Of a stretch of 32,000 bases of DNA, positions 1,358-29,615 are shown piece by piece. Below the pieces are notes generated by a model. The model was given only the letters and a program-made list of their open reading frames with translations. It searched no databases and was not told the DNA's origin. How positions within the stretch are numbered: the first letter of the stretch is position 1; every line of letters starts with the position of its first letter. The DNA is from Nonlabens ponticola (GTDB lineage: Bacteria; Bacteroidota; Bacteroidia; Flavobacteriales; Flavobacteriaceae). Location of the stretch: the NCBI RefSeq assembly GCF_003966335.1, contig NZ_CP034549.1:2220001-2252000 (forward strand). The letters are read 5' to 3'. Both the position numbers and the translations under genes were made by a program.

Positions 1358-1789
1358 ATGAGTAATAAGGTTGTTGATATTCCGCTTTCGCGAAAGCTAA
1401 TCACCACGCTAATTAAAAAAGGCGCAGGGATGACTGAAGCTATTGCGAGTGTCTTGAAAGAGGAAAAACTGACAATCCAACAATTCAATGTGTTGCGTAT
1501 TCTACGTGGCCGAAAAGGCGAACCTGCAACGCTACAAGATGTAAGTAAGAATATGTTACATGCAAATTCTAATACCACACGTGTTATTGACAAGCTTGTT
1601 GACAAGAAGTATGTTGAGCGCGTACAATGTTGTGATGATAGAAGGCAAATCCAGCTCACTATTACAAAAACAGGCCTTTCCCTACTTAAAAGATTGGATC
1701 AAAAAGTAGATGATAAAGAAAATGCCTTGCTTGATAATATGTCTTTGAATGACAAAAAGACTTTGACCGATCTATTGGAAAAACTATAA
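1358..1789 (+). CDS. MarR-family winged-helix transcriptional regulator
   Basis: The protein is 143 aa. It shows a MarR-like pattern (LTIQQFNVLRIL...ATLQDVSKNMLHANSNTTRVIDKLVDKKYVER...DDRRQIQLTIT..G). Confidence 0.8.
   Translation: MSNKVVDIPLSRKLITTLIKKGAGMTEAIASVLKEEKLTIQQFNVLRILRGRKGEPATLQDVSKNMLHANSNTTRVIDKLVDKKYVERVQCCDDRRQIQLTITKTGLSLLKRLDQKVDDKENALLDNMSLNDKKTLTDLLEKL
1384..1397. repeat. Exact palindrome GCTTTCGCGAAAGC, copy 1 (inside the MarR CDS, encodes PLSRKL)
   Basis: Direct read of the sequence: tccGCTTTCGCGAAAGCtaa. Confidence 0.95.
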
Positions 1790-1805
1790 AAATTTATTTT
1801 AATAC

Positions 1806-1820
1806 TTGTATATACAATTA
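1806..1820. promoter_or_regulatory. Operator-like motif TTGTATATACAATTA (copy 2; core TTGTATATACAA is a perfect 12-bp palindrome)
   Basis: The motif lies 20 nt upstream of the yceI-like ATG. It is followed directly by AATTAGTTCCTAAA, which also occurs as AATTAGTTCCCTAAA at 1283-1297. Confidence 0.4.
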
Positions 1821-1839
1821 GTTCCTAAACAATTAAATC

Positions 1840-2406
1840 ATGAATGTAATTTTTAAAACCGCTGTCGTTCTAGCCGTTGTTGCTAGCACCAGCACAATCT
1901 CAAACAAAATGAAAACAGTAAACACAAACAAGAGCACGGTCACATGGACTGGTAAAAAGTTAGGCGGTAGCCATAATGGTACCATCAAATTGAAATCTGG
2001 CGATCTGCAATTTAATGATAGTAAGGTCACCGGCGGTAATTTCACCATCGATATGACCACCATTGATGTCACTGACCTAACGGGTGAAAATAAAACTAAG
2101 CTAGAAGGTCACTTGAAAAGCGATGATTTCTTTGCTACTAGTACTCACGAGGAAGCAACCCTTGTCTTTACAAATGTCAAGGAAAAAAGTCCTCAAGTTT
2201 ATGAGGTAACCGGTGATTTGACGATCAAGGGTATTACTAATCCAATCACATTTGATCTACAGGCTAACGATTCTAGCGCAACTACACAACTTAATATCGA
2301 CCGTAGTAAATACGACGTGAAATACGGATCAAAGAGTTTCTTTAAAGGTCTAGGTGACAATTTTATCTATGATAACTTTGAAGTAGATGTCAAACTAGTT
2401 TATTAG
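1840..2406 (+). CDS. YceI-like periplasmic lipid/polyisoprenoid-binding family protein
   Basis: The protein has a signal peptide. It carries a YceI-like pattern (V.W.GKK..GSH.G.I....G.L........G.F.IDM..I...D........LEGHLKS.DFF.......A...F........Y.V.GDLTI.G.T.P..F). Confidence 0.85.
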   Translation: MNVIFKTAVVLAVVASTSTISNKMKTVNTNKSTVTWTGKKLGGSHNGTIKLKSGDLQFNDSKVTGGNFTIDMTTIDVTDLTGENKTKLEGHLKSDDFFATSTHEEATLVFTNVKEKSPQVYEVTGDLTIKGITNPITFDLQANDSSATTQLNIDRSKYDVKYGSKSFFKGLGDNFIYDNFEVDVKLVY

Positions 2407-2434
2407 AAAGAAACTTCAAACTGTAAAATTGAGA

Positions 2435-2467
2435 AACGGAAGCCTGGTGAGGGCTTCCGTTTTTTGT
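2435..2467 (+). terminator. Rho-independent terminator after the yceI-like gene
   Basis: AACGGAAGCC-tggtgag-GGCTTCCGTT forms a 10-bp GC-rich stem and is followed by TTTTTGTTT. Confidence 0.8.
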
Positions 2468-2588
2468 TTGTGAAGAGTGCGTCTAATACATGCAAGCAAA
2501 CACTCTAGAGCAAGTAATAACGCTAGAGCCATGGTCAAAATCCAGCGAGGCAACTACAATTGTATTTAATTTTATTTTAATTTTCTAT

Positions 2589-2951
2589 TCACTCTCCTGT
2601 ATCATAGAAAAACTGCTCTTTCCATATTTTGCCGTCTTTTACCTGATAAACAGCTAATTCGTTCATTTGTGAACGCTGGCCGCTAGGTTTGTGAGTGGTG
2701 TCCATCCAGATATTGACGACAAAATGATTGTCCGCCACCATAGGGTCGCTGTATTTATTGCCGTGCACTTCAAAATTTTCTTCCCACCACTGCCCTTTTT
2801 TCTGTATGCCGTCCATGCCGTGGACTTCTTTCATGGGCTCTGACATTTCTATGCTGGTGATTTCTGGGCTGTACAATTCCTGATAAGCCTTATCTTCTTG
2901 ATTATTGCGACAGTATTCCACGAGCTTGTTAGCCACTTCTTGAGTATTCAT
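2589..2951 (-). CDS. SnoaL-like / NTF2-fold small protein
   Basis: I prefer the ATG at 2949-2951 (MNTQEVANKLVEYC...). The 68-codon N-terminal extension in the ORF track is Arg/Ser-rich and low-complexity, and would overlap the divergent miaE start. The 120-aa size and the pattern ELYSP...S.E......G......K...W.......P.V....F.V.......G.R..M.E.AVY.VKDGKI..E.FFY fit the SnoaL/NTF2-like family. Confidence 0.55.
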   Translation of the reverse strand: MNTQEVANKLVEYCRNNQEDKAYQELYSPEITSIEMSEPMKEVHGMDGIQKKGQWWEENFEVHGNKYSDPMVADNHFVVNIWMDTTHKPSGQRSQMNELAVYQVKDGKIWKEQFFYDTGE

Positions 2952-3081
2952 AATATTTTGGTTTTTAGGTTGTATTAAAGATATAAAATATTGATAAACA
3001 AGAGATTTGAATAATCTGATTGACAGATAACTAAATGGAAACTTTCTTGAACAAACCAGCCGCCTGAACGATCTTTGTACC

Positions 3082-3684
3082 ATGGAAACAGCTAGCAAAA
3101 CAACACTAGGACTCAACCTACCTACAGATCCTCGATGGGTAGATCTAGCAGCCATGAGCTTGCAGGATATATTGACAGATCATGCTTTTTGCGAGCAAAA
3201 AGCTGCTAGCACCATGATATCTATGGTACAAATGCACAGCGATAAACCAGAATTGGTAGAAGCTCTTGCACCTGTAGTTACAGAGGAATGGGGACACTTT
3301 AGAATGGTATTGGCCGAATTAAAAAAGCGCGGAATGACGCTAGGTCTCCAACGACCTGACGACTACATCAAGACGTTGATGAAAGGAAAACCTAAGGGTC
3401 AAAGCCGTGAGTGGCTGTTCCTAGATCAGCTATTGATTTGTGCATTGATAGAGGCGAGAAGCTGTGAGCGATTTAAAATGTTATCTCAACAACTTGAAGA
3501 TGAAGGCTTGAAGAAATTCTATCATCAATTCATGGTGGCGGAAGCTGCTCATTACAGATTGTTTCTTGACTTAGGAAAAACTTATTTTCCAGAGGAACGC
3601 GTCATGAACCGCTGGCAATATTGGCTGGATTACGAGGCCTCTTTTCTTAAAGATCTAGAAGTGCGCGGTGATAGGATGCATTGA
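3082..3684 (+). CDS. miaE: tRNA-(ms2io6A37)-hydroxylase MiaE (non-heme diiron)
   Basis: MiaE family motifs are present: ILTDHAFCEQKAAS, EEWGHF, LIEARSCERF (matching my recollection of Salmonella MiaE) and AEAAHY. Confidence 0.85.
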   Translation: METASKTTLGLNLPTDPRWVDLAAMSLQDILTDHAFCEQKAASTMISMVQMHSDKPELVEALAPVVTEEWGHFRMVLAELKKRGMTLGLQRPDDYIKTLMKGKPKGQSREWLFLDQLLICALIEARSCERFKMLSQQLEDEGLKKFYHQFMVAEAAHYRLFLDLGKTYFPEERVMNRWQYWLDYEASFLKDLEVRGDRMH

Positions 3685-3690
3685 TTGAGA

Positions 3691-3714
3691 CAGTTGACAG
3701 TTGACAGTTGACAG
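3691..3714. repeat. Tandem heptamer (CAGTTGA)x3 plus CAGT
   Basis: Direct read: cagttgacagttgacagttgacagt, in the miaE-ctaA spacer. Confidence 0.9.
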
Positions 3715-3790
3715 TAAAATATAGTTTATTGAATTTCCATACCATTAGATCAGCCTTTAATCTGAGTCAGTATCAAGAAGAATATATAAT

Positions 3791-4840
3791 ATGTTTACCA
3801 TAAAAAGTTACCGTCGCTGGCTGCGCGCATCCATCGTGATAATTTACCTCATCATTATCGCTGGTGCCGTGGTGCGCATGACGGGTAGTGGTATGGGCTG
3901 TCCAGATTGGCCTAAGTGTTTTGGCTACTGGATACCACCTACTGAGGAAACAGAACTGGAATTCTCACCTGATACACATTATAAAAAAGGAATGGTCATC
4001 ATCATCAATGAAGAATTGCGTGTGGCTCGTGAGGACTTTTTTACAGGCAACACCTATCAAGAAATCGATTGGAAACCCTATATCAAACATGACTACAGCG
4101 TCTTCAATAAGTTCCACACTTGGACAGAATATATTAATAGACTGATAGGCGCACTAGGTGGACTGGTTGTGTTATTCACTGCTGTGGTCTCATTACAATT
4201 CTGGAGATCACGTAAGAAACTGACTATTCTCACCGTCGTAGCACTGCTAGCGATGCTCATACAAGCAGTTATTGGCAAGATTGTAGTAGACACCTTACTA
4301 TCACCAGTACTTATTACCATTCACATGATTGTAGCATTGCTCATCGTTGGACTGCTTATTTATCTATTGCACGAGGTCTTACCTGTCGATTCACGTTACT
4401 ACAATAAAGGCAATCTGTCACGATGGATGTTAATCATCATCGCAATGACCTTTATTCAAGTTGCCATGGGAACGCAGGTGCGTCAGTACATAGATCATCA
4501 AGTAGATTTGTTCGGCTATCCTTTGAGTAGCGCCTGGTTAGAAAACGGACCGCTGATATTCTTGATACATCGTAGTTATTCGATTTTATTGGTGCTTGTG
4601 CATATAGCAGTAAGCTACATAGCCATAAAAAAATACAAGCATCCCAAACGATCGTATTTTTCTCTTAATGCACTGATTTTGATCACGATCTTGAGTGGCG
4701 TATTAATGAATTATGTGGATTTCCCGCTAGGTTCGCAAGCCGCGCATCTCGTAACGGCATCACTCATTTTGGGACTACAGTTTTATCTATGGATGCGCCT
4801 GCGTACAGCTGCAAGATTATCTGTAGCAGCAACCTCATAG
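3791..4840 (+). CDS. ctaA: COX15/CtaA-family heme A synthase
   Basis: The protein is 349 aa and polytopic. It has the N-terminal motif RMTGSGMGCPDWPKCFG and conserved His residues in transmembrane helices (ITIHMIVALL, IHRSYSILL, AAHLVTASL). Confidence 0.8.
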   Translation: MFTIKSYRRWLRASIVIIYLIIIAGAVVRMTGSGMGCPDWPKCFGYWIPPTEETELEFSPDTHYKKGMVIIINEELRVAREDFFTGNTYQEIDWKPYIKHDYSVFNKFHTWTEYINRLIGALGGLVVLFTAVVSLQFWRSRKKLTILTVVALLAMLIQAVIGKIVVDTLLSPVLITIHMIVALLIVGLLIYLLHEVLPVDSRYYNKGNLSRWMLIIIAMTFIQVAMGTQVRQYIDHQVDLFGYPLSSAWLENGPLIFLIHRSYSILLVLVHIAVSYIAIKKYKHPKRSYFSLNALILITILSGVLMNYVDFPLGSQAAHLVTASLILGLQFYLWMRLRTAARLSVAATS

Positions 4841-4866
4841 AGACGAGCTACCACACTTAAAAATCT

Positions 4867-4874
4867 TATATTTG
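4867..4874 (+). promoter_or_regulatory. Candidate -7 box TATATTTG
   Basis: The sequence matches TAnnTTTG and ends 21 nt upstream of the ATG at 4895. Confidence 0.3.
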
Positions 4875-4894
4875 CCACCCTTAAAATCAAGCAC

Positions 4895-5410
4895 ATGATT
4901 TATCGATTAAGAGCCATTCTTGATGCCACTCAAGATGTCTTTAGAGATATAGAAATTGAAGAAACCGCAAGTCTGGAAGACCTGCATAATGTCATTATGC
5001 AATCCTTTCAACTGCAAGGTGATGAAATGGCCAGTTTTTATGCCAGTGATGATGAGTGGAATCAAGGCGAGGAATATTGCCTGTTTGATATGAGTGATGG
5101 CCTGTCGCCTGTTAAGAAAATGTGTGATACACCTCTTAGCGATGCCATGAGCAAATCCAAGACTAAGATGATCTATGTCTATGATTTTCTCAATATGTGG
5201 ACTTTTCTCATTGAGTTGGCAGATGTTGCTGGCGCTGTAGATGGCACGGCTTATCCGCAAGTGATTTTTGCCATAGGTGAGTTACCAGACTCGCCACCAG
5301 ACAAGGAATTTGAAGCAGATCCTCGCTTCCATGATGATGAGGATAATGATGATGAATATGGCGATGATGAGGAGTTTTATGAGGATTATGACGATAACGA
5401 GTTTTACTAG
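4895..5410 (+). CDS. pRiA4b ORF-3-like (PF07929-type) domain protein with an extremely acidic C-terminal tail
   Basis: YRLRAIL....VFRDIEI.....LEDLHNVIMQSF......MASF and YVYDFLNMWTFLIEL resemble the family pattern Y.LkV.L...iWR.i.v.....L..LH..iq.afgw...HLh.F / Y.YDFGD.W.H. The tail is DDEDNDDEYGDDEEFYEDYDDNEFY. Confidence 0.6.
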   Translation: MIYRLRAILDATQDVFRDIEIEETASLEDLHNVIMQSFQLQGDEMASFYASDDEWNQGEEYCLFDMSDGLSPVKKMCDTPLSDAMSKSKTKMIYVYDFLNMWTFLIELADVAGAVDGTAYPQVIFAIGELPDSPPDKEFEADPRFHDDEDNDDEYGDDEEFYEDYDDNEFY

Positions 5411-5416
5411 ACCACT

Positions 5417-6475
5417 ATGATCAACCTGTACAATACTAGAATTGAGGAACTCGCGATCCATCGTGTAGGTAACAAGAATAAAGGTGAGATGCTGCTCACG
5501 TCAAGTAATAAGACGCCGCTGGATGACGAGATGCACTCGTTGCTCAAGGAATATTTCTTGAAACCATTCCGCAGTAAGGAAGAGGCCTATTACAGTTTTA
5601 CCCATGAACAGGATCTAGAGTTTCATGATATGTACGCTTTCGCGAAAGCGATATTCAATACACCATCATCACTACTAGAAAATTCTAAGAATGCCGCCAA
5701 GCATCTATATCAACAGTCGGTGCATCCACATATACGCAGCGGCGAGTTGTATGTGTGTTACCTCACTGGACTCATGCTAGACAATAATAAAGTTGATGCA
5801 ATAGGATTATTCAAGAGCGAGATCAAACAAGATTTTTTACAGTTTGAAGAAGGCGAGTTAGATCTCAAGATGATCCTACAGCAAGGTGTCAACCTCAACA
5901 AACTAGACAAGGGCGCCATCATATTTAATGTCGAAGAAGAACAAGGATACAAGATCCTATCGGTTGATAGCAACAGATATGACGCTAAATACTGGCTAGA
6001 GGATTTTCTAGGTGTAGACGTTTTTGAGGATGAAAATTTCTTCACAAAGAAATATTTGAAATTCTGTCAGGACTTTGCCAAGGACGTTGTTCTGCCTGCC
6101 GAAGACAAAAAAGAAGAAGTTATGTTCATGAACAGATCTATGAACTATTTTGCCAAAAATGATGACTTTGAAGAGACAAAATTCCTGAACGAGACGCTGG
6201 AAAACCCAGAGCTTATTCCAGAGTTTAAACACTATAAGACTGAGAAAGGACCTAAGTATTCTATTGAGGACGTTTCTACTTTCCCTATTTCAAATACTGC
6301 GGTAAGCGCGGCGCGCAAAGGAATAAGGAGTGTTATCAATCTAGACACACATGTACAGATCAAGATGGATTTCACCAACAGCGACAGTGCCGAAAAATTT
6401 ATTGAGAAAGGCTGGGACGAGGAACGACAAATGTATTATTACCTCGTGTACTTTAACCGCGAGGAAAAGAAGTAG
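5417..6475 (+). CDS. NdpA/YejK-like nucleoid-associated protein (NA37 family)
   Basis: At 352 aa the size matches YejK. The N-terminus IEELAIHRVGNK and the later blocks (HIRSGELYVCY, NLNKLDKGAIIF, RYDAKYWLEDFLG) parallel the YejK layout. Confidence 0.65.
   Translation: MINLYNTRIEELAIHRVGNKNKGEMLLTSSNKTPLDDEMHSLLKEYFLKPFRSKEEAYYSFTHEQDLEFHDMYAFAKAIFNTPSSLLENSKNAAKHLYQQSVHPHIRSGELYVCYLTGLMLDNNKVDAIGLFKSEIKQDFLQFEEGELDLKMILQQGVNLNKLDKGAIIFNVEEEQGYKILSVDSNRYDAKYWLEDFLGVDVFEDENFFTKKYLKFCQDFAKDVVLPAEDKKEEVMFMNRSMNYFAKNDDFEETKFLNETLENPELIPEFKHYKTEKGPKYSIEDVSTFPISNTAVSAARKGIRSVINLDTHVQIKMDFTNSDSAEKFIEKGWDEERQMYYYLVYFNREEKK
5636..5649. repeat. Exact palindrome GCTTTCGCGAAAGC, copy 2 (inside the NdpA-like CDS, encodes AFAKA)
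   Basis: Direct read: tacGCTTTCGCGAAAGCgat. It is read in a different frame from copies 1 and 3. Confidence 0.95.
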
Positions 6476-7592: not shown

Positions 7593-8501
7593 GTGGAACA
7601 AATCCTGCAAATAACCAATCTTTCCAAACATTACGGCGCTCTCAAAGCGGTCGATGATGTGAGCTTTACCATTGAAAAAGGCCATGTTTATGGCATATTA
7701 GGACCTAATGGTAGTGGTAAATCTACCACGCTGGGCATGGTGCTTAATGTCGTGAATCCTACTAGTGGTGATTATCAATGGTTTGGTGGTGGCGTGAGTA
7801 ATCACGATGCGCTCAAGAGAATTGGTGCGATCATCGAGCGCCCTAATTTTTATCCCAGTATGGATGCGGTGCAAAATCTCAAACTTGTTTGCAAGATTAA
7901 AAATATTACCACTGATAAAATTAATGAGAAACTAGAGTTGGTGGGTTTGCTTTCGCGAAAGCATAGTCCCTTTAAAACATACTCGTTAGGTATGAAGCAG
8001 CGTCTTGCCATTGCAAGTGCCTTGCTCAATGATCCTGAAATACTAATTCTTGATGAGCCTACTAATGGGCTGGATCCACAAGGAATACGTGCTATACGTG
8101 ATTTGATACAGCATATCTCGAGTAATGGCACCACCATATTGCTTGCCTCACACCTACTCGACGAGGTAGAAAAAGTATGTTCTCATGTAATCGTATTGCG
8201 TCAAGGAAATATGCTGTACAGCGGGCCAGTTGACGAGATGAATAGCACGCACGGCACCATCCTTATTGATGCGTCAGATCGTGGTGGCTTGAAATATTTT
8301 ATAAGCCAGCAATCGTACGCTGGAAGTATAGAAGAACTAGTCGATGGGTTTGAAGTAATGCTTTTGAGCGACATCGACACAGCGCAAGTCAATAAAGACG
8401 CTGTACAAGCAGGAATTTATCTCAACAAGTTGCTGTTAAAAAAACAGAGCCTTGAAGATCAATTCATTGAATTAACCAACAACCAACCACAAGCATCATG
8501 A
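7593..8501 (+). CDS. ABC transporter ATP-binding protein (ABC-2/DrrA-like, with a C-terminal extra domain)
   Basis: The gene has a GTG start. Motifs are Walker A GPNGSGKST, Q-loop, signature YSLGMKQRL, Walker B ILILDEPTNGLD and H-loop LLASHLL. Confidence 0.9.
   Translation: MEQILQITNLSKHYGALKAVDDVSFTIEKGHVYGILGPNGSGKSTTLGMVLNVVNPTSGDYQWFGGGVSNHDALKRIGAIIERPNFYPSMDAVQNLKLVCKIKNITTDKINEKLELVGLLSRKHSPFKTYSLGMKQRLAIASALLNDPEILILDEPTNGLDPQGIRAIRDLIQHISSNGTTILLASHLLDEVEKVCSHVIVLRQGNMLYSGPVDEMNSTHGTILIDASDRGGLKYFISQQSYAGSIEELVDGFEVMLLSDIDTAQVNKDAVQAGIYLNKLLLKKQSLEDQFIELTNNQPQAS
7949..7962. repeat. Exact palindrome GCTTTCGCGAAAGC, copy 3 (inside the ABC ATPase CDS, encodes LLSRKH)
   Basis: Direct read: tttGCTTTCGCGAAAGCata. 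Confidence 0.95.
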
Positions 8502-12660: not shown

Positions 12661-12674
12661 GCTTTCGCGAAAGC
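12661..12674. repeat. Exact palindrome GCTTTCGCGAAAGC, copy 4 (intergenic, 31 nt after the T9SS gene stop)
   Basis: Direct read: ttacGCTTTCGCGAAAGCaaaa. Confidence 0.95.
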
Positions 12675-16902: not shown

Positions 16903-16906
16903 TTAC

Positions 16907-16920
16907 GCTTTCGCGAAAGC
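16907..16920. repeat. Exact palindrome GCTTTCGCGAAAGC, copy 5 (in the 37-nt fadA-fadE spacer)
   Basis: Direct read: ttacGCTTTCGCGAAAGCggaa, starting 5 nt after the fadA stop. Confidence 0.95.
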
Positions 16921-16939
16921 GGAATAACAACAACATATT

Positions 16940-18748
16940 ATGGCAACAGAAACAGCAGAAAAAAAGATGATACGCGGTGGACAGTTCATTGTAACTGAAA
17001 CGGCTGCGGAAGATGTGTTCACACCAGAGGATTTCTCTGATGAGCAGAAAATGATGAAAGAGTCGGTAACCGAGTTTGTCGACAAGGAAATTGTACCGCA
17101 CAAAGAACGTTTTGAGAAGAAGGACTATGCACTCACTGAAGAAGTAATGCGCAAGGCCGGTGAGATGGGCTTCCTAGGAATCGCCGTACCAGAAGAATAC
17201 GATGGTCTAGGAATGGGCTTTGTCTCAACCATGCTAGTTTGTGACTACATTTCTGGCGCTACAGGTTCTATTGCAACCGCGTTTGGTGCGCATACAGGAA
17301 TTGGTACCATGCCTATTACCTTGTACGGAACTGAAGAACAAAAGAAAAAGTACGTTCCTAAACTTGCCACTGGTGAGTGGTTTGGAGCATACTGTTTGAC
17401 TGAGCCGGGTGCTGGATCTGATGCCAACTCTGGTAAAACAAAAGCAGAACTTACCGAAGATGGTAAGCATTATAAGATCAACGGTCAAAAGATGTGGATC
17501 TCAAATGCGGGTTTCTGTAATGTATTTGTGGTTTTCGCACGATTAGGTGAAGACAAAAACATCACTGGTTTTATCGTTGAAAATGATCCTAGTAATGGTA
17601 TTTCTATGGGTGAAGAAGAGCACAAGCTTGGTATACACTCTTCCTCTACTCGTCAGGTATTTTTCAACGATACCATGGTACCAGTAGAAAATATGCTTGC
17701 TGGTCAAGGTGAAGGTTTTAAAATCGCGATGAATGCCTTGAACGTAGGTCGTATTAAGCTGGCTGCTGCCTGTCTAGATGCACAACGTCGTGTAATCTCG
17801 CTTGCAACGCAGTATGCTAATGATCGTGAGCAGTTCAATACGCCGATTGCTAAGTTTGGTGCGATACGCAAGAAGATTGCTGATATGGCAACCAATGCTT
17901 ACGTAGGTGAAAGTGCATCATATCGAGCAGCAAAAGACATTGAAAACAGAATCCATAAGCGTCAGGAAGAAGGTGCCACTTTCGCGGAAGCGGAATTGAA
18001 AGGTGTAGAAGAATTTGCGATTGAGTGTTCTATTCTTAAAGTTGCGGTTTCTGAAGATATGCAGGAATGTAGTGATGAAGGAATTCAGATCTACGGTGGT
18101 ATGGGCTTTAGTGCCGATGCACCAATGGAAGCTGCCTGGAGAGATGCTCGTATCTCACGTATCTATGAAGGTACTAACGAGATCAATCGTATGCTAGCCG
18201 TTGGAATGTTGGTAAAGAAAGCTATGAAAGGTCATGTAAACTTACTAGAGCCAGCAATGGCTGTAGGTCAAGAATTGACTTCGATCCCATCATTTGATAC
18301 ACCAGATTATTCTCAACTATTTGCAGAAGAGAAAGAAATGCTCAAGAAGCTGAAAAAAGTATTCTTGATGGTGGCTGGTAGCGCTGTACAAAAATTAGGT
18401 ACAGAACTAGAGAAGCACCAACAATTGCTACTTGCTGCATCTGATATCTTGATTGAGATCTACATGGCAGAAAGTGCGATTTTGAGAACTGAGAAAAATG
18501 CAAACCGTTACGGCGAAGAATCTCAGAAAGAACAAATCGCCATGTCTCAGTTGTATCTATATAAAGCTGCAAAAATCATTCAGGCGAGAGCTGAAGAAGG
18601 TATCGCAGGTTTTGCAGAAGGCGACGAGCAACGCATGATGCTGATGGGCTTGAAACGTTTTGCAAAATACGCTAACTTACCTAACGTAATCGAGTTGAGA
18701 AACATCATCGCAGATAAAGTAACAGAAGAGAATAAATACCCATTCTAG
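16940..18748 (+). CDS. fadE: Long-form acyl-CoA dehydrogenase (FadE-type, 602 aa)
   Basis: ACAD motifs are present: CLTEPGAGSDA, KMWISNAG, QIYGGMGF and the RIYEGTNEI catalytic Glu region. There is an extra C-terminal helical domain, as in about 600-aa FadE proteins. Confidence 0.9.
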   Translation: MATETAEKKMIRGGQFIVTETAAEDVFTPEDFSDEQKMMKESVTEFVDKEIVPHKERFEKKDYALTEEVMRKAGEMGFLGIAVPEEYDGLGMGFVSTMLVCDYISGATGSIATAFGAHTGIGTMPITLYGTEEQKKKYVPKLATGEWFGAYCLTEPGAGSDANSGKTKAELTEDGKHYKINGQKMWISNAGFCNVFVVFARLGEDKNITGFIVENDPSNGISMGEEEHKLGIHSSSTRQVFFNDTMVPVENMLAGQGEGFKIAMNALNVGRIKLAAACLDAQRRVISLATQYANDREQFNTPIAKFGAIRKKIADMATNAYVGESASYRAAKDIENRIHKRQEEGATFAEAELKGVEEFAIECSILKVAVSEDMQECSDEGIQIYGGMGFSADAPMEAAWRDARISRIYEGTNEINRMLAVGMLVKKAMKGHVNLLEPAMAVGQELTSIPSFDTPDYSQLFAEEKEMLKKLKKVFLMVAGSAVQKLGTELEKHQQLLLAASDILIEIYMAESAILRTEKNANRYGEESQKEQIAMSQLYLYKAAKIIQARAEEGIAGFAEGDEQRMMLMGLKRFAKYANLPNVIELRNIIADKVTEENKYPF

Positions 18749-18771
18749 AATAACTAAAATGTGAGTGAGAG

Positions 18772-18802
18772 AATGCCTTGGAGAAATTCAAGGCATTTTT
18801 TT
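18772..18802 (+). terminator. Rho-independent terminator of the fad operon
   Basis: AATGCCTTG-gagaaatt-CAAGGCATT is followed by a T-run (tttttttatt). Confidence 0.8.
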
Positions 18803-18816
18803 ATTCCCGTAATCAT

Positions 18817-18891
18817 GTCATGCTGAACTAGCTTCTGCATCTCACCATGTCTTTGTTAGAATTTAAGAAGCTGAAATAAACTCAGCTTGAC
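18817..18891. repeat. Inverted pair of hairpin repeat elements (family GTCAWGCTGA..TTTCAGCWTC)
   Basis: gtcatgctgaactagcttctgcatctc (18817-18843) and gaagctgaaataaactcagcttgac (18867-18891, reverse orientation). Both are related to the copies at 20681-20707 and 20774-20800. Confidence 0.8.
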
Positions 18892-18972
18892 AATAGACAA
18901 CAGTATAAAGTTGCTGAGCTTTACCGATACACCACTTAACAATTCCCTAAGGAGAAATCAGCCTGTAACCAA

Positions 18973-19007: not shown

Positions 19008-19814
19008 ATGGAAAATTTCAATACAGAAACCGTTGTCAATCTAGTTTTAGAATACGGTATACCTGTCTTAAAAGCTTTATTAATCTATATGATTGGCGCT
19101 TGGCTTATCGCTAAGGCGGTAAGGATTACGAGCAAAATCATGGAGAAGCGCGAGTATGAAGAAACGCTGCGCAAATTCTTGCTTAACATCATACGTTGGG
19201 GTTTATGGGTATTATTATTGGTGACTGTGGTAGGCACATTAGGAGTCGAGACCAGTAGTTTTGCTGCCGTTCTTGCTGCTGCAGGTCTTGCTATCGGTTT
19301 AGCTCTGCAAGGTTCGCTGTCTAATTTTGCAGGCGGCGTGCTGTTATTATTGTTTAAGCCATTCAAGGTTGGCGACACGATTGAGGCTCAGGGCATTACA
19401 GGAACCGTCAAGGAAATTGACATTTTACAGACCAAGGTTTTACAGTTCTCAAAAAAGCTAGCGATCATTCCTAATGGTCCATTACTCAATGGGAACATCA
19501 TCAATTTTGATACAGAAGGTATTTTGCGTGTAGAAACCCAGATAGGCGTAAGCTATGATGCAGACCTTCCTGCTACCCTAGATGCGCTGCGCAAATTGTG
19601 TACAGATCATCCGCTCACGCTGGAAGATCCTGCGCCTATTGTTGAAGTAGTCACTAACGCTGACAGCAGCATTAATATCCTAGTACGACCTTATACCAAA
19701 ACCGAAGATCACTGGACTGTTTTCTTCTATTTACAGAAGAACTTCAAACCAACGCTAGAAGCTATTGGTGTTGAGATTCCATTTCCGCAAATGGATATAC
19801 ATCGCAAGAATTAA
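19008..19814 (+). CDS. mscS: Small-conductance mechanosensitive channel (MscS family)
   Basis: I prefer the ATG at 19008. The pore-helix and beta-domain signature is AAGLAIGLALQGSLSNFAGGVLLLLFKPFKVGDTIE..G..GTV.EI.....K.......L.IIPNG. Confidence 0.85.
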   Translation: MENFNTETVVNLVLEYGIPVLKALLIYMIGAWLIAKAVRITSKIMEKREYEETLRKFLLNIIRWGLWVLLLVTVVGTLGVETSSFAAVLAAAGLAIGLALQGSLSNFAGGVLLLLFKPFKVGDTIEAQGITGTVKEIDILQTKVLQFSKKLAIIPNGPLLNGNIINFDTEGILRVETQIGVSYDADLPATLDALRKLCTDHPLTLEDPAPIVEVVTNADSSINILVRPYTKTEDHWTVFFYLQKNFKPTLEAIGVEIPFPQMDIHRKN

Positions 19815-19821
19815 TAAAAAT

Positions 19822-19853
19822 AAAATCCCGATCTATCGGGATTTTATTTTTTT
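19822..19853 (+). terminator. Rho-independent terminator after mscS
   Basis: The near-perfect palindrome AAAATCCCGATctATCGGGATTTT is followed by ATTTTTTT. Confidence 0.8.
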
Positions 19854-20590: not shown

Positions 20591-20604
20591 GCTTTCGCGA
20601 AAGC
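20591..20604. repeat. Exact palindrome GCTTTCGCGAAAGC, copy 6 (intergenic; the extended 22-nt near-palindrome ttgcGCTTTCGCGAAAGCgtaa spans 20587-20608)
   Basis: Direct read. It lies 45 nt after the stop at 20546. Confidence 0.95.
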
Positions 20605-20680: not shown

Positions 20681-20800
20681 GAGAAGTTGAAATAAATTCA
20701 GCTTGACAAGTCCAAGTAAGTTTTCTTATGCTTACTGGTCTCAGTATCGCAAACTGATAAGAAAGCTCATTCTGTCATGCTGAATTTATTTCAGCATCTC
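20681..20800. repeat. Second inverted pair of the hairpin repeat family
   Basis: gagaagttgaaataaattcagcttgac (20681-20707, reverse orientation) and gtcatgctgaatttatttcagcatctc (20774-20800). The two copies match at 24/27 positions once one is reverse-complemented. A degenerate third copy may exist near 20612-20655. Confidence 0.8.
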
Positions 20801-25211: not shown

Positions 25212-25225
25212 GCTTTCGCGAAAGC
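25212..25225. repeat. Exact palindrome GCTTTCGCGAAAGC, copy 7 (intergenic)
   Basis: Direct read: tttaGCTTTCGCGAAAGCgtaa. It lies 118 nt after the response-regulator stop. Confidence 0.95.
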
Positions 25226-25355
25226 GTAATCATCAACCATCATATCAAAAAATACCCAATAATGGGTATGGTATCGCCTGTCCTGCATCATTAATTTTAA
25301 CGTGTTCATTGAAAAATGAGCACTTGGGGAAAAGAGAGCAGATCTGTTCTCTTAT

Positions 25356-25387
25356 AACTACCAGGCCTGGTGTCTGGTAGTTTTTTT
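25356..25387 (+). terminator. Terminator-like hairpin plus T-run in an ORF-free spacer
   Basis: aaCTACCAG-gcctggtgt-CTGGTAGtt is followed by TTTTTTT. It is preceded by a second hairpin, AAGAGAGCAGATCTGTTCTCTT (25332-25353). Confidence 0.55.
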
Positions 25388-25415
25388 ATGAATTTATATG
25401 GATATGTAATTAATG

Positions 25416-25423
25416 TATCTTTG
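25416..25423 (+). promoter_or_regulatory. Candidate -7 box TATCTTTG
   Basis: The sequence matches TAnnTTTG and ends 22 nt upstream of the ATG at 25445. Confidence 0.3.
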
Positions 25424-25444
25424 ATCCTTTATTGATTTGTAAAC

Positions 25445-26467
25445 ATGAAGGCACTTAAGTACATTTTTATACTATTACTTGTATTGATTATCGCTGGCGC
25501 AGTCTATTTTTCGCTCCAAGATGGATCTTATGAGACTGAAAGCAAGCAACTTGTAGAGGCACCTGTAGATCTAGTCTACAGTGAACTGGCAGACTTTTCT
25601 AATTGGGAAAAGTGGTATGAACGGGCTCAAAATGAAGATTACAGCGCGAGTTTGAGTAATCAAACCGCTGGCGTGGATGCCGTCTATACCTATAATAGCG
25701 ATGATGGTAATGGTACCATAACCGTTGAGCGTCTGGATCCCAACAAGAGTATTGAATATGCTATAAATCATGATGGACGCCTAGGCAAACGTGAAGCGAC
25801 CTTGTCGATCGACCTGCAAAAGCAAGAAATAGGAACGCTGGTCACCAGCGCAATAAAGGGTGATCAAGATCTAGGAAGTAAAATTTTCACCACTCTTACA
25901 GGCGCAGATCTAGCCAACAACTGGGAAAACAATATTACCGCTACCGTTGAAAATATGGAGAGCGTTCTCGAGGAAAAAATGAACCTCAAAACCATTAATG
26001 TTGATGGTCTTATACAATATAGCGGTGGCTACTATCTCTATATGTCGTCGAGTTCTACCATGGCAAATTTTTCTAATCTACAGTCGCAAATGACACAGCA
26101 GATACGCAGTTTTATGCAGGCTAATAACATCGATACTTATGGCGCGCCCATGGTTATTTACGAGAAATTTGACGAGCCACGCGAGAATGTCATCTTTAGT
26201 GCTGCTATACCGGTACAAAATCGTATCCTGACCGGTGTGGACAGTAAGATCCTATGTGGTTTTATGGAGCCAGGAAGCGCTGTAAAGGTCACTTTAAAAG
26301 GAAAATATAAGTATCTCGAGGAAGCCTGGAATAAAGCAGAAAACTATATAGTAGTAAATGGACTGGAAAAGTCTGAAGTGCCACCATATGAGGTCTATAA
26401 AACAGATCCCTACAAAACACCTAACCCAGCAAACTACTTGACTGAAATATACATTCCTATAAAGTGA
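25445..26467 (+). CDS. Membrane-anchored protein with an SRPBCC/START-like N-terminal half and a GyrI-like (effector-binding) C-terminal half
   Basis: An N-terminal TM anchor is followed by an SRPBCC-like pattern (V.AP...VY..L.DF.NW.KW). The C-terminal half resembles GyrI-like small-molecule-binding domains (G.P..IY..FD......F.AAIPV......G..........G.A.K....G.Y..L..AW.........G.......PYE.Y..DP.........TEIYIPI). This is a family-level call only. Confidence 0.5.
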   Translation: MKALKYIFILLLVLIIAGAVYFSLQDGSYETESKQLVEAPVDLVYSELADFSNWEKWYERAQNEDYSASLSNQTAGVDAVYTYNSDDGNGTITVERLDPNKSIEYAINHDGRLGKREATLSIDLQKQEIGTLVTSAIKGDQDLGSKIFTTLTGADLANNWENNITATVENMESVLEEKMNLKTINVDGLIQYSGGYYLYMSSSSTMANFSNLQSQMTQQIRSFMQANNIDTYGAPMVIYEKFDEPRENVIFSAAIPVQNRILTGVDSKILCGFMEPGSAVKVTLKGKYKYLEEAWNKAENYIVVNGLEKSEVPPYEVYKTDPYKTPNPANYLTEIYIPIK

Positions 26468-26841
26468 TAGGTAAATTATTGGTATTAGTTTTTGTTGGTG
26501 GTGGTTTAGGTAGCACGTTGAGATATTCGTTTTCGCTATGGCTTAATCAAGATGGTATCAAGTGGATTCCTACAATGCTGGTAAATGTCTTAGGATGTTT
26601 ACTTCTGGGTACGCTCCTAGCCTATTATAATAAAGAACAATTGAGCAGCAGTTGGTACTTATTTGCCGCAGTAGGATTTTGTGGTGGATTGACCACATTT
26701 TCAACTTTTTCTGCAGAATTTTTTCTATTCCTAAAAGACCAAAACTACATCGCCGCAACAGGTTATGTTGCGGCGACAATAGTATTGGGCATCGCGGCCA
26801 TCACAGCCGCTTATGCATTCACAGGTAAACTGATTAATTAG
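26464..26841 (+). CDS. crcB: Fluoride-specific ion channel FluC (CrcB)
   Basis: The GTG start overlaps the upstream TGA (GTGA). CrcB motifs GGGLGSTLRY and GFCGGLTTFSTF are present. The 125-aa protein has 4 TM helices. Confidence 0.85.
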   Translation: MIGKLLVLVFVGGGLGSTLRYSFSLWLNQDGIKWIPTMLVNVLGCLLLGTLLAYYNKEQLSSSWYLFAAVGFCGGLTTFSTFSAEFFLFLKDQNYIAATGYVAATIVLGIAAITAAYAFTGKLIN

Positions 26842-27053
26842 TTTGTAGCAACTTGCGTTTGACGACGCAGTTTGCGAGCCTTTTTGGTTTTTTGCGTCCA
26901 AAAAAGTAATTTACCGAAAAGTAAAATCACTAAAATGTCTGCTGCAACAAGAAAGGTAATCCTTACTGCAGTGCTGCCTGTAAATTCGAAGGTAAAACCT
27001 ACAAGACCAGTGACAACTGTTAAGATAAAAAGGATGAGTATATATTTATTCAT
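26838..27053 (-). CDS. Possible small two-TM membrane protein (71 aa) with a basic C-terminal tail
   Basis: There are two clear hydrophobic helices followed by KTKKARKLRRQ. The 3' end overlaps the crcB stop by 4 nt. There is no homology evidence, so this rests on the ORF and hydropathy only. Confidence 0.4.
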   Translation of the reverse strand: MNKYILILFILTVVTGLVGFTFEFTGSTAVRITFLVAADILVILLFGKLLFWTQKTKKARKLRRQTQVATN

Positions 27054-27135
27054 GAGTTTAATTTTTATGTAAAAATAATTTCTTGAACAGCTGTAAAAAG
27101 TTAACAGTAACGGAATTACCTATAAATTAACTATA

Positions 27136-27870
27136 ATGAGAAAAAGATTGTTAAACATAGTCATCCTCATGATGGCATTGTCATCATGTAGCGAGGAAAA
27201 GAAATCTTTAAATGACATCGCTGACACAAATTTAGGAGCTGATGAAACTTATAGTAATGTCTATAATGTTGGTTTTCTTATCTCTGATGGAGTGTATAAC
27301 ACAGAGCTCACGTCACCTTATGATATATTTCAGCACACGATTTATCGCGATAGCATCAAGCCTATGAATGTTTTTACAGTGGCACAAGTAGATACTGTGG
27401 TCACCACTTTTGAAGGCTTACGCCTGTTGCCTGACTATACTTTTAAAAATGCTCCTGACATCGATATTCTTGTAGTTCCTAGTGCAGAGCATCACCTAGA
27501 TACAGATCTTGAAAACGAAGAACTCATTGCCTTTGTAAAAAGCACTGGAGAAAAAGCCATGTATGTCACCAGTCATTGCGATGTCGCTTTTGTACTTGCG
27601 CAAGCTGGTTTACTCGATGGCAAAGTAAGTACCACATTCCCATCTGATATTGATTTGATGCGTAAGACATTTCCAGACCTTGATGTACGCAAGGATGTGC
27701 TATTTGTTCATGACCACAATGTTATTACCAGTGCTGGTGGCGCACGATCCTTTGAAGCAGCTCTTTACCTTACCGACATGTTATATGGTAAGAAGATAGC
27801 CCAAAGTCTAGCTGGTGGCTTGGTGCTAGATTACGACCTAAGCAATTATCCACATTTGATTGTGGATTGA
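27136..27870 (+). CDS. DJ-1/PfpI-family (class I glutamine amidotransferase-like) lipoprotein
   Basis: The lipobox-like signal is LMMALSSC. The DJ-1/PfpI core is DILVVPS....... and the nucleophile-elbow region is YVTSHCDVAFVLAQAGLLDGKVSTTF, followed by ITSAGG. Confidence 0.75.
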   Translation: MRKRLLNIVILMMALSSCSEEKKSLNDIADTNLGADETYSNVYNVGFLISDGVYNTELTSPYDIFQHTIYRDSIKPMNVFTVAQVDTVVTTFEGLRLLPDYTFKNAPDIDILVVPSAEHHLDTDLENEELIAFVKSTGEKAMYVTSHCDVAFVLAQAGLLDGKVSTTFPSDIDLMRKTFPDLDVRKDVLFVHDHNVITSAGGARSFEAALYLTDMLYGKKIAQSLAGGLVLDYDLSNYPHLIVD

Positions 27871-29019
27871 TTATTTATTAAGTGACTCAACCGCCTTTCT
27901 GTATGAGTCTGGCATCTCGCCAAATTCTTCCATGCCTTGCTCGCTCATTTGATCTTTTACCTGTCGCCAATCTTCCGCAGTTGGTTGTACTGCTTTTTGT
28001 TCTTTTGCGCGTGCTGGCTCATAAGTTAAGTAAGCATAACTAGGAAAATGATCACTACCAAAGTTGACACCAGTGCCTGATTCTTCATGAAAAAATTGCG
28101 GAGCAATCAATATGTGATCCAGCGGCCATCTAAAGAAGAAATACTGTGCATGAAACGTATTGTAAAATCCACGACCTATGCGCAGGTCTAATAACTTAGC
28201 GACCGTTTTAGTTAACTCAGTACTGTCGGACCAGGCCACGTCATTAAAATCTCCCAAAACAATTACAGGTAGCTCTGACTTGTTACTCATGAGTGCCGTT
28301 TTCATAAGCTCTGTATCGCGATCTGTGCTCATATCATTGTGCTGCGGCATGGGTGGCGTTGGGTGAATGGCATATAATTGGAATAAATTACCATTGCGCA
28401 TCTCTACCTGGGCGTGAATAGAAGGTATTTTAGGATCCACCATAAACTGCACGCTGGTGTTAGATAACGGTAGCTTAGAATATACCAGCATTCCATAAGT
28501 ATTATCCTGCGGCTGTTCAACCTTATAAGGATAATCATCACCTATGGCAATTCTAATCTCATTCATCCAGCGGTCATTAGTTTCTGTAAAAACAATTAGA
28601 TCTGGTTGTCGTTCACTAATTTCATCAAACAGCTTTTCGTTTTTCTTATTTGACTGCAACACATTTGCTGTATAAATCTTCAAACGATCTTCATCATTTA
28701 CTTGTGAACTGCTTTCTAGAACTTCAAGACCAACTATAGGTGTATAATCGAGGATCTTGGAACATTGAAAAACAAAACATCCCAGCAACACTGTGATGTA
28801 CAAATAGTCATTAATCCATTTAGGATTAAAAGTGACAAAATACAGGATGATCGCAAGAAGCGTGAATCCTGTCAACTGTAAATGAGGAAAGTCAAAAATG
28901 CGCACCCACCAAAAATCTGCAGCGATAAGTGGCATGAGTGACAATAGCGCTGCGATTAAGCCTACTACTTGAAAAACGATTCTCAATTTCATGAGGATAC
29001 CCTTTAAGAGTGATGCCAT
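27871..29019 (-). CDS. Membrane-anchored endonuclease/exonuclease/phosphatase (EEP) family protein
   Basis: About three N-terminal TM helices precede the EEP motifs (DLIVFTETN, YAIHPTPP, VLGDFNDVAWS, GSDHFP). The start could alternatively be the Met at 28992. Confidence 0.8.
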   Translation of the reverse strand: MASLLKGILMKLRIVFQVVGLIAALLSLMPLIAADFWWVRIFDFPHLQLTGFTLLAIILYFVTFNPKWINDYLYITVLLGCFVFQCSKILDYTPIVGLEVLESSSQVNDEDRLKIYTANVLQSNKKNEKLFDEISERQPDLIVFTETNDRWMNEIRIAIGDDYPYKVEQPQDNTYGMLVYSKLPLSNTSVQFMVDPKIPSIHAQVEMRNGNLFQLYAIHPTPPMPQHNDMSTDRDTELMKTALMSNKSELPVIVLGDFNDVAWSDSTELTKTVAKLLDLRIGRGFYNTFHAQYFFFRWPLDHILIAPQFFHEESGTGVNFGSDHFPSYAYLTYEPARAKEQKAVQPTAEDWRQVKDQMSEQGMEEFGEMPDSYRKAVESLNK

Positions 29020-29058
29020 CTATTTATTATATATGGATGACAATTGAGTGGTTGTAAA

Positions 29059-29559
29059 TCAACCAAAAGCGTCCGGTTCAAAATCTTGATTCCCGATACT
29101 CTTAGGGTTAGGACCCCATTGATTCGTACCGTGCTTGCTGTCCTCTACTAGAAAGATGAGCAAGATAATACCGCCTACAAACGGTATAAAGCTAATTAAA
29201 TAATACCAGGCACTGCGACCCGTATCGTGCAATCTCCTCGCAACAACAGCTAGACTAGGAATTATTGTCGCCAGTGCATACAGCACGATCAAGATGTAGA
29301 CAATAATAGCTGGTGCAGTAGCCTCAGCAGCTGCAAACGCGATGAGAGGTATCGATAAAGCAATGACCACTAAAAAATTGAACAACTGGAAATACCAATA
29401 TTCTGACCGGCGTGCGCGTCCAGAGAAATTGGCATAATTGTTAAAAACCTTCTTGACATAATCCATCATACCTGCTTGCTCACTACTGGAGTCAAACGGC
29501 TCACGATTACGTCGAGAACGATAATTAGAATTGTCAGCGGTTGGGTCAAAATTGCTCAT
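29059..29559 (-). CDS. DUF805-family inner-membrane protein
   Basis: The signature GRARRSEYWYF....... is followed by TM helices and then RRLHDTGRSAWYYL. Confidence 0.8.
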   Translation of the reverse strand: MSNFDPTADNSNYRSRRNREPFDSSSEQAGMMDYVKKVFNNYANFSGRARRSEYWYFQLFNFLVVIALSIPLIAFAAAEATAPAIIVYILIVLYALATIIPSLAVVARRLHDTGRSAWYYLISFIPFVGGIILLIFLVEDSKHGTNQWGPNPKSIGNQDFEPDAFG

Positions 29560-29601
29560 AGTTATATTGGTTGGTAGTGCAATATAATTTTTTCTTGTTA
29601 C

Positions 29602-29615
29602 GCTTTCGCGAAAGC
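29602..29615. repeat. Exact palindrome GCTTTCGCGAAAGC, copy 8 (intergenic, 38 nt 3' of the TamL-like gene stop on the minus strand)
   Basis: Direct read: ttacGCTTTCGCGAAAGCataa. Confidence 0.95.

Follow-up and report, generated by a model that had tools for sequence, protein, structure and literature searches.

To our knowledge, the highly iterated palindromes described so far are all cyanobacterial. Among the other words with which they can be compared, uptake signal sequences (USS) are more evenly spaced than random, the Chi sites of E. coli lie in islands in which the sequence 5' of Chi, on its own strand, is G/T-rich, and the sites of chromosome-organising proteins (Noc-binding sites, NBS; SlmA-binding sites, SBS; matS; parS) number tens per genome and are regionally confined. 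The cyanobacterial palindrome HIP1 (GCGATCGC) has been reported to be preserved as DNA sequence itself by Xu et al. (PMC5861425). Other work reports that HIP1 increases natural transformation by as much as 100-fold, that this effect depends on methylation and is uptake- or Chi-like, and that HIP1 co-varies with a DNA-uptake apparatus (bioRxiv 10.1101/2024.09.10.611283; 10.64898/2026.06.24.733823). Here we analyse a 32-kb stretch of DNA from the flavobacterium Nonlabens ponticola (contig NZ_CP034549.1, positions 2,220,001 to 2,252,000; hereafter the window), in which an exact 14-bp palindrome, GCTTTCGCGAAAGC, recurs. The original prediction on this DNA had likened the palindrome to HIP1, and its abundance, its restriction to one lineage, its origin by substitution and its conservation at synonymous sites all agree with that comparison. 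We propose that GCTTTCGCGAAAGC is a highly iterated palindrome found throughout the genus Nonlabens and acts as a signal at the DNA level, an explanation which, taken as a whole, we put forward tentatively and at slightly less than an even chance.

Eight exact copies of the palindrome are present in the window. Three of them lie in genes: at 1384..1397, in the N-terminal part of a MarR-family gene (1358-1789), where the palindrome is read as LSRK (translation IPLSRKL); at 5636..5649, in a gene encoding an NdpA-like nucleoid-associated protein (5417-6475), where it is read as AFAKA; and at 7949..7962, in the ATPase gene of an ABC transporter (7593-8501), where it is again read as LSRK, in minor codons. 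The other five are intergenic. The copy at 12661..12674 begins 31 nt past the stop codon of a gene encoding a 1088-aa protein sorted by the type IX secretion system (T9SS), the one at 16907..16920 occupies a 37-nt spacer between a thiolase and an acyl-CoA dehydrogenase gene, 5 nt past a stop, and those at 20591..20604 (right flank GTAA) and 25212..25225 follow a stop codon by 45 nt and, in the latter case, that of a response regulator by 118 nt. The last copy, at 29602..29615 (left flank TTAC), is found between two minus-strand genes, 38 nt past the stop of a BamA-like gene. All eight coordinates, the five distances to stop codons and the reading frames of the three coding copies had been given correctly in the original prediction.

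This abundance is far beyond chance, as had been proposed. Dinucleotide-preserving shuffles of the window gave 0.10 expected matches even with up to two mismatches allowed, and Markov models of orders 1 to 5, computed with the palindromes masked, gave between 1e-4 and 2e-6 expected exact copies. The eight TTCGCGAA octamers of the window all fall within the palindrome, as do all eight CGAAAGC half-sites, so that free half-sites are absent. The flanks of the copies are unrelated beyond about 4 nt, and a repeat finder links the copies through the palindrome alone; they are therefore independent short palindromes, and the possibility that they are parts of one longer duplicated segment finds no support. 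A degenerate ninth copy, proposed at 17978 in the acyl-CoA dehydrogenase gene, did not hold up: it is a two-mismatch match, and such matches occur at chance level (15 in 1.61 Mb of outgroup flavobacterial DNA, or about 0.3 per 32 kb).

The proteins encoded in the window are flavobacterial (among them a T9SS-sorted protein, a FadB-like 3-hydroxyacyl-CoA dehydrogenase/enoyl-CoA hydratase, a thiolase, an acyl-CoA dehydrogenase and the NdpA-like protein), and two of them gave access to comparison loci of about 21 kb each, whose coordinates are given below after a locus number (L). Among species-representative genomes, the nearest acyl-CoA dehydrogenase locus is that of Nonlabens tegetincola (89% amino-acid identity), with four exact copies of the 14-mer. 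Further Nonlabens loci were reached through NdpA homologues, the nearest of which (88-90% identity) belong to a Nonlabens metagenome-assembled genome (MAG), N. marinus, N. arenilitoris and N. xiamenensis. Exact copies number six in the MAG locus, seven in N. marinus, three in N. arenilitoris (plus one variant present twice), four in N. xiamenensis and four in a tegetincola-like contig, while Altibacter, the nearest outgroup by NdpA, has none. All seven Nonlabens-type genomes sampled thus carry the 14-mer, at about one copy per 3-7 kb, and they share the same word unchanged. Among 80 flavobacterial acyl-CoA dehydrogenase loci it was found in the Nonlabens locus alone; the other 79 (1.6 Mb, from Leeuwenhoekiella, Gillisia, Aquimarina, Mesonia, Flavobacterium, Polaribacter and others) contain neither exact nor one-mismatch copies, and no analogous iterated palindrome was found in them.

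A wider sample was obtained from metagenomes, in which a flank-extended pattern (TNC...G) retrieved 120 loci (800 kb) with 195 exact copies. Most of these loci (108 of 120) have a low GC content, and the 12 high-GC single matches are chance matches. Altogether, the loci retrieved for carrying the motif (836 kb) contain 211 exact copies. Extrapolating from 0.25-0.33 copies per kb, and not from a count, a 3-Mb genome should contain roughly 700-1000 copies. An assembly or adaptor artefact is ruled out, since copies stand in frame in conserved genes of isolates, MAGs and metagenomes from many sources. In N. arenilitoris (33.5% GC) every copy seen is intergenic, and a non-palindromic variant with one mismatch, GCTTCCGCGAAAGC, occurs at two intergenic sites with TTAC/GTA flanks (L084:5841, 9359; L085:2616). 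No earlier description of the 14-mer, or of an iterated palindrome in Bacteroidota, was found in a literature search of incomplete coverage, which also gave nothing relevant on uptake sequences in Flavobacteria.

The coding copies proved the most informative about how the palindrome arises and persists. Proper gene calls were available for four sources (N. marinus, the MAG, N. xiamenensis and the tegetincola-like contig), and these place 17 of 21 copies within genes. Over all loci, where genes were called by an open reading frame (ORF) heuristic, 129 copies are coding and 82 intergenic, which corresponds to a four-fold intergenic enrichment per base, and the coding copies are read in three frames (AFAKA 76, xFRES 28, LSRK 25). 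Alignment of orthologues, which had been suggested together with this tally, showed that the coding copies are restricted to Nonlabens, and that outgroup proteins have other residues at the same place and the same length. NdpA, for example, has 352 residues both in Nonlabens, where AFAKA is present in 16 of 18 proteins of the clade, and in outgroups, where unrelated residues stand at that place; similarly, the site in the ABC ATPase reads LLSRK in Nonlabens and LADRQ (within GLADRQ) in Altibacter. Since the length of the protein does not change, the insertion of 14 nt cannot yield the coding copies.

Once present, these copies are conserved beyond what the protein demands. Four other sources (N. 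marinus, the MAG, N. xiamenensis and the tegetincola-like contig) have the NdpA copy unaltered at the corresponding codon, and over five species all four third codon positions inside the palindrome are invariant, compared with 40 of 336 outside it. The ABC ATPase copy is exact in four Nonlabens species, with 5/5 third positions invariant inside against 37/265 outside. Pooling the two genes (4-5 species), we obtained 9 of 9 invariant third positions inside the palindrome and 77 of 601 outside. In the LSRK frame, moreover, the codons imposed by the palindrome are minor ones, with shares within their synonymous families of 0.15 (CTT), 0.09 (TCG) and 0.12 (CGA). Invariance at synonymous sites in combination with minor codons indicates that the DNA sequence itself is preserved. 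A motif acting at the peptide level is ruled out by the use of three frames and by the copies between genes.

Other orthologous positions show both persistence and turnover. The MarR gene of N. marinus has an orthologous exact copy at codon 10 (L081:6882), and another N. marinus copy lies 32 nt past the stop of the gene preceding the MarR orthologue (L081:19305), a placement comparable to that of the copy at 12661 in the window; that preceding gene is a second T9SS-type gene, which has no counterpart in the window. The copies in NdpA and MarR are both missing from N. arenilitoris, and the copy at 16907 is missing from the matching spacer in N. tegetincola and in eight other genera. Conversely, the FadB-like gene of N. 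tegetincola has a copy, read as AFAKA, where the window gene has none and encodes AAAKA, the two differing by five nucleotides. In the Nonlabens MAG, a C-terminal fragment of a gene of the ComM/Mg-chelatase family is duplicated (L082:17660-17860 and 19096-19296); the two fragments are about 20% diverged and the palindrome is exact in both.

These observations bear directly on whether the palindrome could be a miniature repetitive extragenic palindromic (REP) element, that is, a hairpin in single-stranded DNA mobilised by a Y1 transposase of the IS200 or REP-associated (RAYT) type that cuts beside a TTAC-like tetranucleotide. Like REP elements and their paired form (REPIN), the palindrome is short and GC-rich in an AT-rich genome and has a conserved tetranucleotide at its 5' side; TTAC directly 5' of it recalls the target of IS608 and the REP tetranucleotide, although this is a weak lead. 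A search for such a transposase, as had been advised, gave one frameshifted Y1_Tnp gene in the Nonlabens MAG, beside the NdpA gene (L082:11352-11849; Pfam E = 7.7e-7). It lies in a RAYT-like region (L082:11132-11950, also L083:1869-2690) flanked by inverted hairpins, TCGCGCGCTTTTGCAAAGCGAGCGCG and its near reverse complement, whose stem CGCTTT/AAAGCG is that of the palindrome plus one flank base. The presence of the one-mismatch variant twice in N. arenilitoris could be read in the same sense. However, these hairpins differ from the palindrome in their loops and are not iterated, so that the transposase gene is not flanked by the same repeat, and a scan of about 1.1 Mb of palindrome-bearing DNA gave just one further RAYT-like match, a 30-aa remnant (L213). 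REP elements are extragenic, imperfect, 20-40 nt long, clustered or paired and spread by insertion, whereas the Nonlabens copies are often coding, exact and single; they avoid each other, form neither clusters nor REPIN doublets, show no selection for an extended stem, and their intragenic position without change of length is impossible by a 14-nt insertion. Literature on RAYT in Flavobacteria yielded chance word matches only. We thus regard a mobile origin as very improbable, and the earlier judgement that this is not a simple REP element is supported. Separate REPIN-type pairs do exist in the window: a hairpin motif of about 28 nt, TGTCA[A/T]GCTGAA...TTCAGC[A/T]TCT, forms two inverted pairs in two spacers (18816-18843 with 18866-18893, and 20682-20709 with 20773-20800). 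These are REPIN-like and distinct from the 14-mer.

The sequences around the palindrome were then compared over all copies. The consensus extends symmetrically to 22 bp or more, TTNC preceding and GNAA following the 14-mer; among the 56 half-sites of the unbiased Nonlabens set, C has a frequency of 0.82 at -1, T of 0.75 at -3 and T of 0.68 at -4. The TTAC...GTAA consensus of the original prediction is therefore real in kind, but looser than stated. Beyond these positions, C almost disappears from the strand that runs 5' to 3' into the palindrome: its frequency between -4 and -16 is 0.03-0.08, where the background is 0.19. Up to about -25 the same strand has an excess of G and T. The other flank shows the mirror image, and the pattern holds in coding and intergenic copies alike. 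Peaks of T lie at -4, -7, -10 and -13, which in the dominant AFAKA frame are third codon positions on either side, indicating that the flank bias is expressed at synonymous sites.

Such symmetric flanks could in principle extend a hairpin or cruciform, but this was ruled out. Past the first 4 nt, the complementarity between the two flanks of one copy equals that of chimeric flank pairs, and the folding energies are equal as well (-12.5 for real copies, -12.2 to -12.7 for chimeras). The 14-mer alone, folded as a DNA hairpin, reaches -2.1 kcal/mol (z = -0.2), no better than shuffled sequences. The flank pattern is a common consensus and not the extension of a hairpin.

The same data weigh on an explanation at the RNA level, by which the palindrome would be a terminator, an attenuator or an mRNA-stabilising hairpin. 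The five intergenic copies of the window do all lie downstream of a gene, and a loose terminator scan picked one of them (16906-16921, minus strand). Over the sampled loci, however, intergenic copies are not enriched in convergent spacers (tandem 38, convergent 12, divergent 14; n=64), so that no special meaning attaches to a position 3' of a stop codon, which the original prediction had noted. The stem is weak, most copies are intragenic in several species, and the flanks are T-rich on the 5' and A-rich on the 3' side in both directions, which is the reverse of what an intrinsic terminator shows. As had been noted from the start, the copies are not followed by a T-run, while canonical terminators with a hairpin and a T-run are found separately in the window (18765-18803, 19816-19851 and 25356-25382), which shows that the organism uses ordinary intrinsic terminators. 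A scan of the window against Rfam 15 gave no match at gathering score. We consider an RNA-level element extremely improbable. One of the canonical terminators (19816-19851, AAAAATAAAATCCCGAT...ATCGGGATTTTATTTTT) is perfectly bidirectional. In conclusion, the palindrome is not an RNA signal, a peptide motif or a mobile element.

The spectrum of imperfect copies gives a further constraint. In the 836 kb of palindrome-bearing DNA, the 211 exact copies and 18 copies with one mismatch compare with zero expected at the outgroup rate in both classes; two-mismatch matches are still in excess (22 observed, 7.8 expected), whereas those with three (34 against 42) and four mismatches (192 against 282) are not. 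The halo of decayed or incipient copies is thus small and limited to one or two mismatches. The one-mismatch variants are mostly transitions, most commonly at the outermost position, and changes of the core CpGs account for three of the 18, which is no excess. From a rough steady-state argument, exact copies would be lost at less than one tenth of the neutral rate.

Scarcity of near-misses could also result from constant correction, and a neutral molecular drive, an older proposal for HIP1, has therefore to be considered. According to it, a methyltransferase or nuclease acting on CGCG or TCGCGA, together with biased short-patch repair or gene conversion, would generate and maintain the palindrome, which would have no function of its own. 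The core elements CGCG and TCGCGA are typical methylation targets, a drive would place the palindrome in any DNA resident in the host, prophages included, and the G/T-rich, C-poor 5' strand resembles what deamination of single strands might leave. However, outside the palindrome TCGCGA (5 occurrences in the window) and CGCG (47) are at about the expectation from composition, neither avoided nor enriched, so the restriction-type behaviour attributed to the core in the original prediction was not recovered. Sites with three or four mismatches are not enriched, which means that there is no pool being driven toward the palindrome, and the core CpGs show no excess of changes among the one-mismatch variants. 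A specificity of 14-22 bp with flanks of about 25 nt exceeds that of known methyltransferase or Vsr-type sites, and the avoidance between neighbouring copies described below is not predicted. On balance a neutral drive appears improbable.

The distribution of the copies is more even than random. In the window the gaps measure 4252, 2313, 4712, 4246, 3684, 4621 and 4390 bp; their coefficient of variation is 0.205, and a test against uniform placement gives P = 2e-4. Over 114 non-redundant loci (857 kb), only 12 pairs of copies are separated by less than 1.5 kb, where 42.2 +/- 5.6 are expected; matching the placement for coding and intergenic DNA leaves the expectation at 40.9 +/- 5.6, and with the window removed the 12 pairs compare with 39.6. 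Only one pair is closer than 500 bp. The density of neighbouring copies rises from 0.04 per kb under 1.5 kb to 0.14 per kb at 1.5-3.5 kb and about 0.22 per kb farther away. The gaps are over-dispersed, and no sharp period was seen.

Even spacing of this kind brings in the main rival of our reading, a site of chromosome architecture. In this hypothesis an abundant nucleoid-associated or domain-organising protein, comparable to Noc on NBS, SlmA on SBS, MatP on matS or ParB on parS although with far denser sites, would organise the nucleoid at the kilobase scale, and the spacing itself would be selected. A palindrome of 14 bp with symmetric flanks suits a dimeric DNA-binding protein, and the known sites are likewise palindromes of 12-16 bp, tolerated in genes and conserved; these are bound by dimers, while a dimeric reader of the Nonlabens palindrome is our proposal. 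Short-range repulsion is strong, the longest gap in the window measures 4712 bp, orthologous copies are conserved, and Xu et al. proposed such a role for HIP1 from its periodic spacing (PMC5861425). On the other side, the palindrome occurs about once per 4 kb in every locus sampled, where the known sites are few and regional. Copies in temperate phages, reported below, are compatible with an architectural role but not predicted by it, and apparent lineage-specific iterated words in sister genera, also discussed below, are more typical of the dialects of uptake sequences. A site of the ParB/parS or Noc type in particular was set aside on density and on the spacing of its half-sites (TTTC-2-GAAA here, TTTC-4-GAAA in those sites). 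We judge an architectural site unlikely, although it has to be kept in view.

A scan of viral contigs for the 14-mer returned mostly single chance matches. Several low-GC contigs, however, have two to three or more copies with C|G and TTAC/GTAA flanks and with the spacing seen in the host (L138, IMGVR_UViG_2617271332_000001; L108, L125 and L130, IMGVR_UViG_3300039191_000362; L121; L107; L163). These contigs are genuine phage DNA, since they encode a head-maturation protease, a baseplate hub, and a Mu-like transposase with transposition proteins, and the low-GC palindrome-bearing phages are probably phages of Nonlabens. The process that maintains the palindrome thus also acts on, or benefits, temperate phages of the host clade. 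Separately, 15 of the 129 viral occurrences of the 14-mer have the flanks GACG|CGCG and probably represent one unrelated phage gene or repeat, conserved and high in GC.

How does the palindrome compare with the systems introduced above? It shares with HIP1 a short, exact, palindromic sequence and a huge over-representation (PMC5861425, PMC4390886). Neither word is confined to spacers, each being found also within genes, in every reading frame. Each is conserved between orthologues more strongly than codon constraint accounts for, which for Nonlabens is shown in two genes; both are spaced non-randomly and quasi-regularly, and both have a consensus that extends outward and is restricted to a lineage. 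Nevertheless the sequences are unrelated, HIP1 having 8 bp and the Nonlabens palindrome 14 bp (at least 22 bp with its flanks), and the hosts belong to different phyla, Cyanobacteria and Bacteroidota. The density of HIP1 is 0.3-2.7 per kb, that of the Nonlabens palindrome about 0.25-0.33 per kb. The GATC/CGATCG core of HIP1 is missing here, and the link to DmtA/DmtC does not carry over. One-off variants, common for HIP1 according to Elhai, are rare for the Nonlabens palindrome. As for strand-asymmetric flanks of 25 nt, we know of no description of them for HIP1.

The USS of Pasteurellaceae and the DNA uptake sequences (DUS) of Neisseriaceae are also hyper-abundant exact words with an extended consensus, present in genes and spacers, with conservation between orthologues and a range limited to one family or genus; they come in dialects, and phages of the hosts can carry them. 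They differ in being non-palindromic, 9-12 nt long, about four times denser and surrounded by a large halo of one-mismatch forms. Their hosts are proven to be competent, and ComP is known as the receptor of DUS, whereas the Nonlabens motif is known here from sequence alone. Chi has a similar density, about one per 4-5 kb, and can likewise be carried by phages, but it is an asymmetric 5- to 8-mer, read in single-stranded DNA by RecBCD or AddAB and oriented with replication, while the Nonlabens motif is palindromic and lacks free half-sites. The palindrome thus behaves as an iterated genomic signal of the HIP1 or USS class, but neither its sequence nor its taxon nor a link to methyltransferases makes it a member of the HIP1 family, and it fails the tests that define REP elements, terminators and Chi sites. 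It is set apart from the known cases by its length of 14-22 bp, its nearly all-or-none exactness, its asymmetric flanks, the repulsion between copies and the phylum of its host. The even spacing, the strand-asymmetric flanks of about 25 nt and the scarcity of near-miss copies go beyond what the original prediction contained.

We consider it probable that selection maintains the palindrome as a signal and that a protein reads it on double-stranded DNA. The reader would be a two-fold symmetric, probably homodimeric, sequence-specific factor, as suggested by the exact palindromic core, the symmetric decay of the flanks and the lack of structural covariation. Its footprint would exceed the 14-mer, covering TTNC/GNAA and then about 25 nt of a G/T-rich, nearly C-free strand. 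Selection, or constant correction, would act on the DNA itself to hold the copies exact, overriding codon preference and sometimes the amino-acid sequence. What is selected would be coverage: about one site per 3-5 kb, with second sites nearer than about 1.5 kb not maintained, and with sites placed in spacers where these are available and otherwise in tolerant positions of genes. Synonymous conservation, the repulsion of close neighbours and the placement in spacers all point to such coverage selection at the DNA level.

What the signal would be for is a more doubtful matter. A possible function, which we favour at clearly less than an even chance, is that the palindrome marks DNA as resident, for the uptake of conspecific DNA, its homologous recombination, or both. 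USS/DUS and Chi, which have the same population-genetic signature, serve in this way, and HIP1, the closest analogue, is reported to raise transformation. In addition, after resection toward the palindrome the strand left as a 3' tail would be G/T-rich and C-poor, a composition that is preferred by RecA and that surrounds Chi in E. coli. Within the Flavobacteriaceae, as classified by its authors, Riemerella columbina prefers self-DNA in natural transformation, and no motif was identified there (PMC7965970).

Several points weigh against this interpretation. Reader and function are both proposed by analogy. Known uptake sequences are non-palindromic with a large one-off halo, while the halo in Nonlabens is small (12:1), and even spacing together with conservation would fit a site of chromosome architecture equally well. 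The gene calls in the metagenome loci are ORF heuristics, and 28 of the 129 coding copies fall in the first tenth of their ORFs, which suggests that some of them really lie upstream of the true start codon. Finally, when the metagenome loci are included (390 half-sites: C 0.91 at -1, T 0.71 at -3, T 0.57 at -4), the values at -1 and -3 are inflated by the flank-biased search pattern.

In the course of the comparison, a non-palindromic 9-mer, TTTCCGAAG, was seen to be enriched about 10-20-fold in loci of other flavobacteria (about 17-22 kb each), with 12 occurrences in a Patiriisocius MAG (L041), 10 in Aureitalea sp. L0-47 (L004), seven in a Bacteroidota MAG (L031) and four in an Aequorivita MAG (L072); the mean in the other 76 flavobacterial loci is about 0.5, and the window has none. 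Its copies have either orientation and lie in genes as well as spacers (for example L041:5644, 10512 and 17147), and its core resembles that of the Nonlabens palindrome (TTTC-CG-AAG compared with TTTC-GCG-AAAG). It may be a second lineage-specific iterated signal; should the two words be related, the Flavobacteriaceae would possess dialects of one signal, like the Neisseriaceae and Pasteurellaceae. A broader hypothesis, speculative and rather unlikely as it stands, is that the Flavobacteriaceae have a self-DNA recognition system with lineage dialects, GCTTTCGCGAAAGC in Nonlabens and TTTCCGAAG in Aureitalea, Patiriisocius and relatives, in which a site every few kb is selected.

Two repeats of other kinds were met in the comparison loci. 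In Robertkochia flava (L024:15812-20540), five repeats of about 45 bp (...GGCTATATCTCATGGCTAGT...AAAAAAGAA...ATTCATGA) each stand just upstream of an ATG and look like the repeated promoter or leader of a gene family. In Aureitalea sp. (L004:9930-9990), a tandem heptamer, ACTGAAC/ACTGAAT, of about eight units lies directly upstream of the start codon of the acyl-CoA dehydrogenase gene.

The purpose of HIP1-type palindromes has been debated for thirty years, and an independent example, with a much higher information content (14-22 bp), is now at hand in another phylum. It provides a second system in which an uptake signal, a recombination hotspot, a nucleoid organiser and a repair drive can be tested. 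The length of the motif makes such experiments practical, since a 22-mer bait (TTACGCTTTCGCGAAAGCGTAA) should pull down the reader. The palindrome could also be used as a genus marker, for binning Nonlabens DNA and for assigning phages to hosts in marine metagenomes. With R. columbina, a relative that prefers self-DNA and for which no motif was identified, the candidate found in a related genus is directly testable (PMC7965970), and the palindrome may offer a route to transformable Nonlabens. If the dialect hypothesis is true, Bacteroidota would have their first uptake- or Chi-like signal, which would also be the first palindromic signal of that kind and an independent parallel to HIP1, and it could help to resolve what HIP1-like motifs do.

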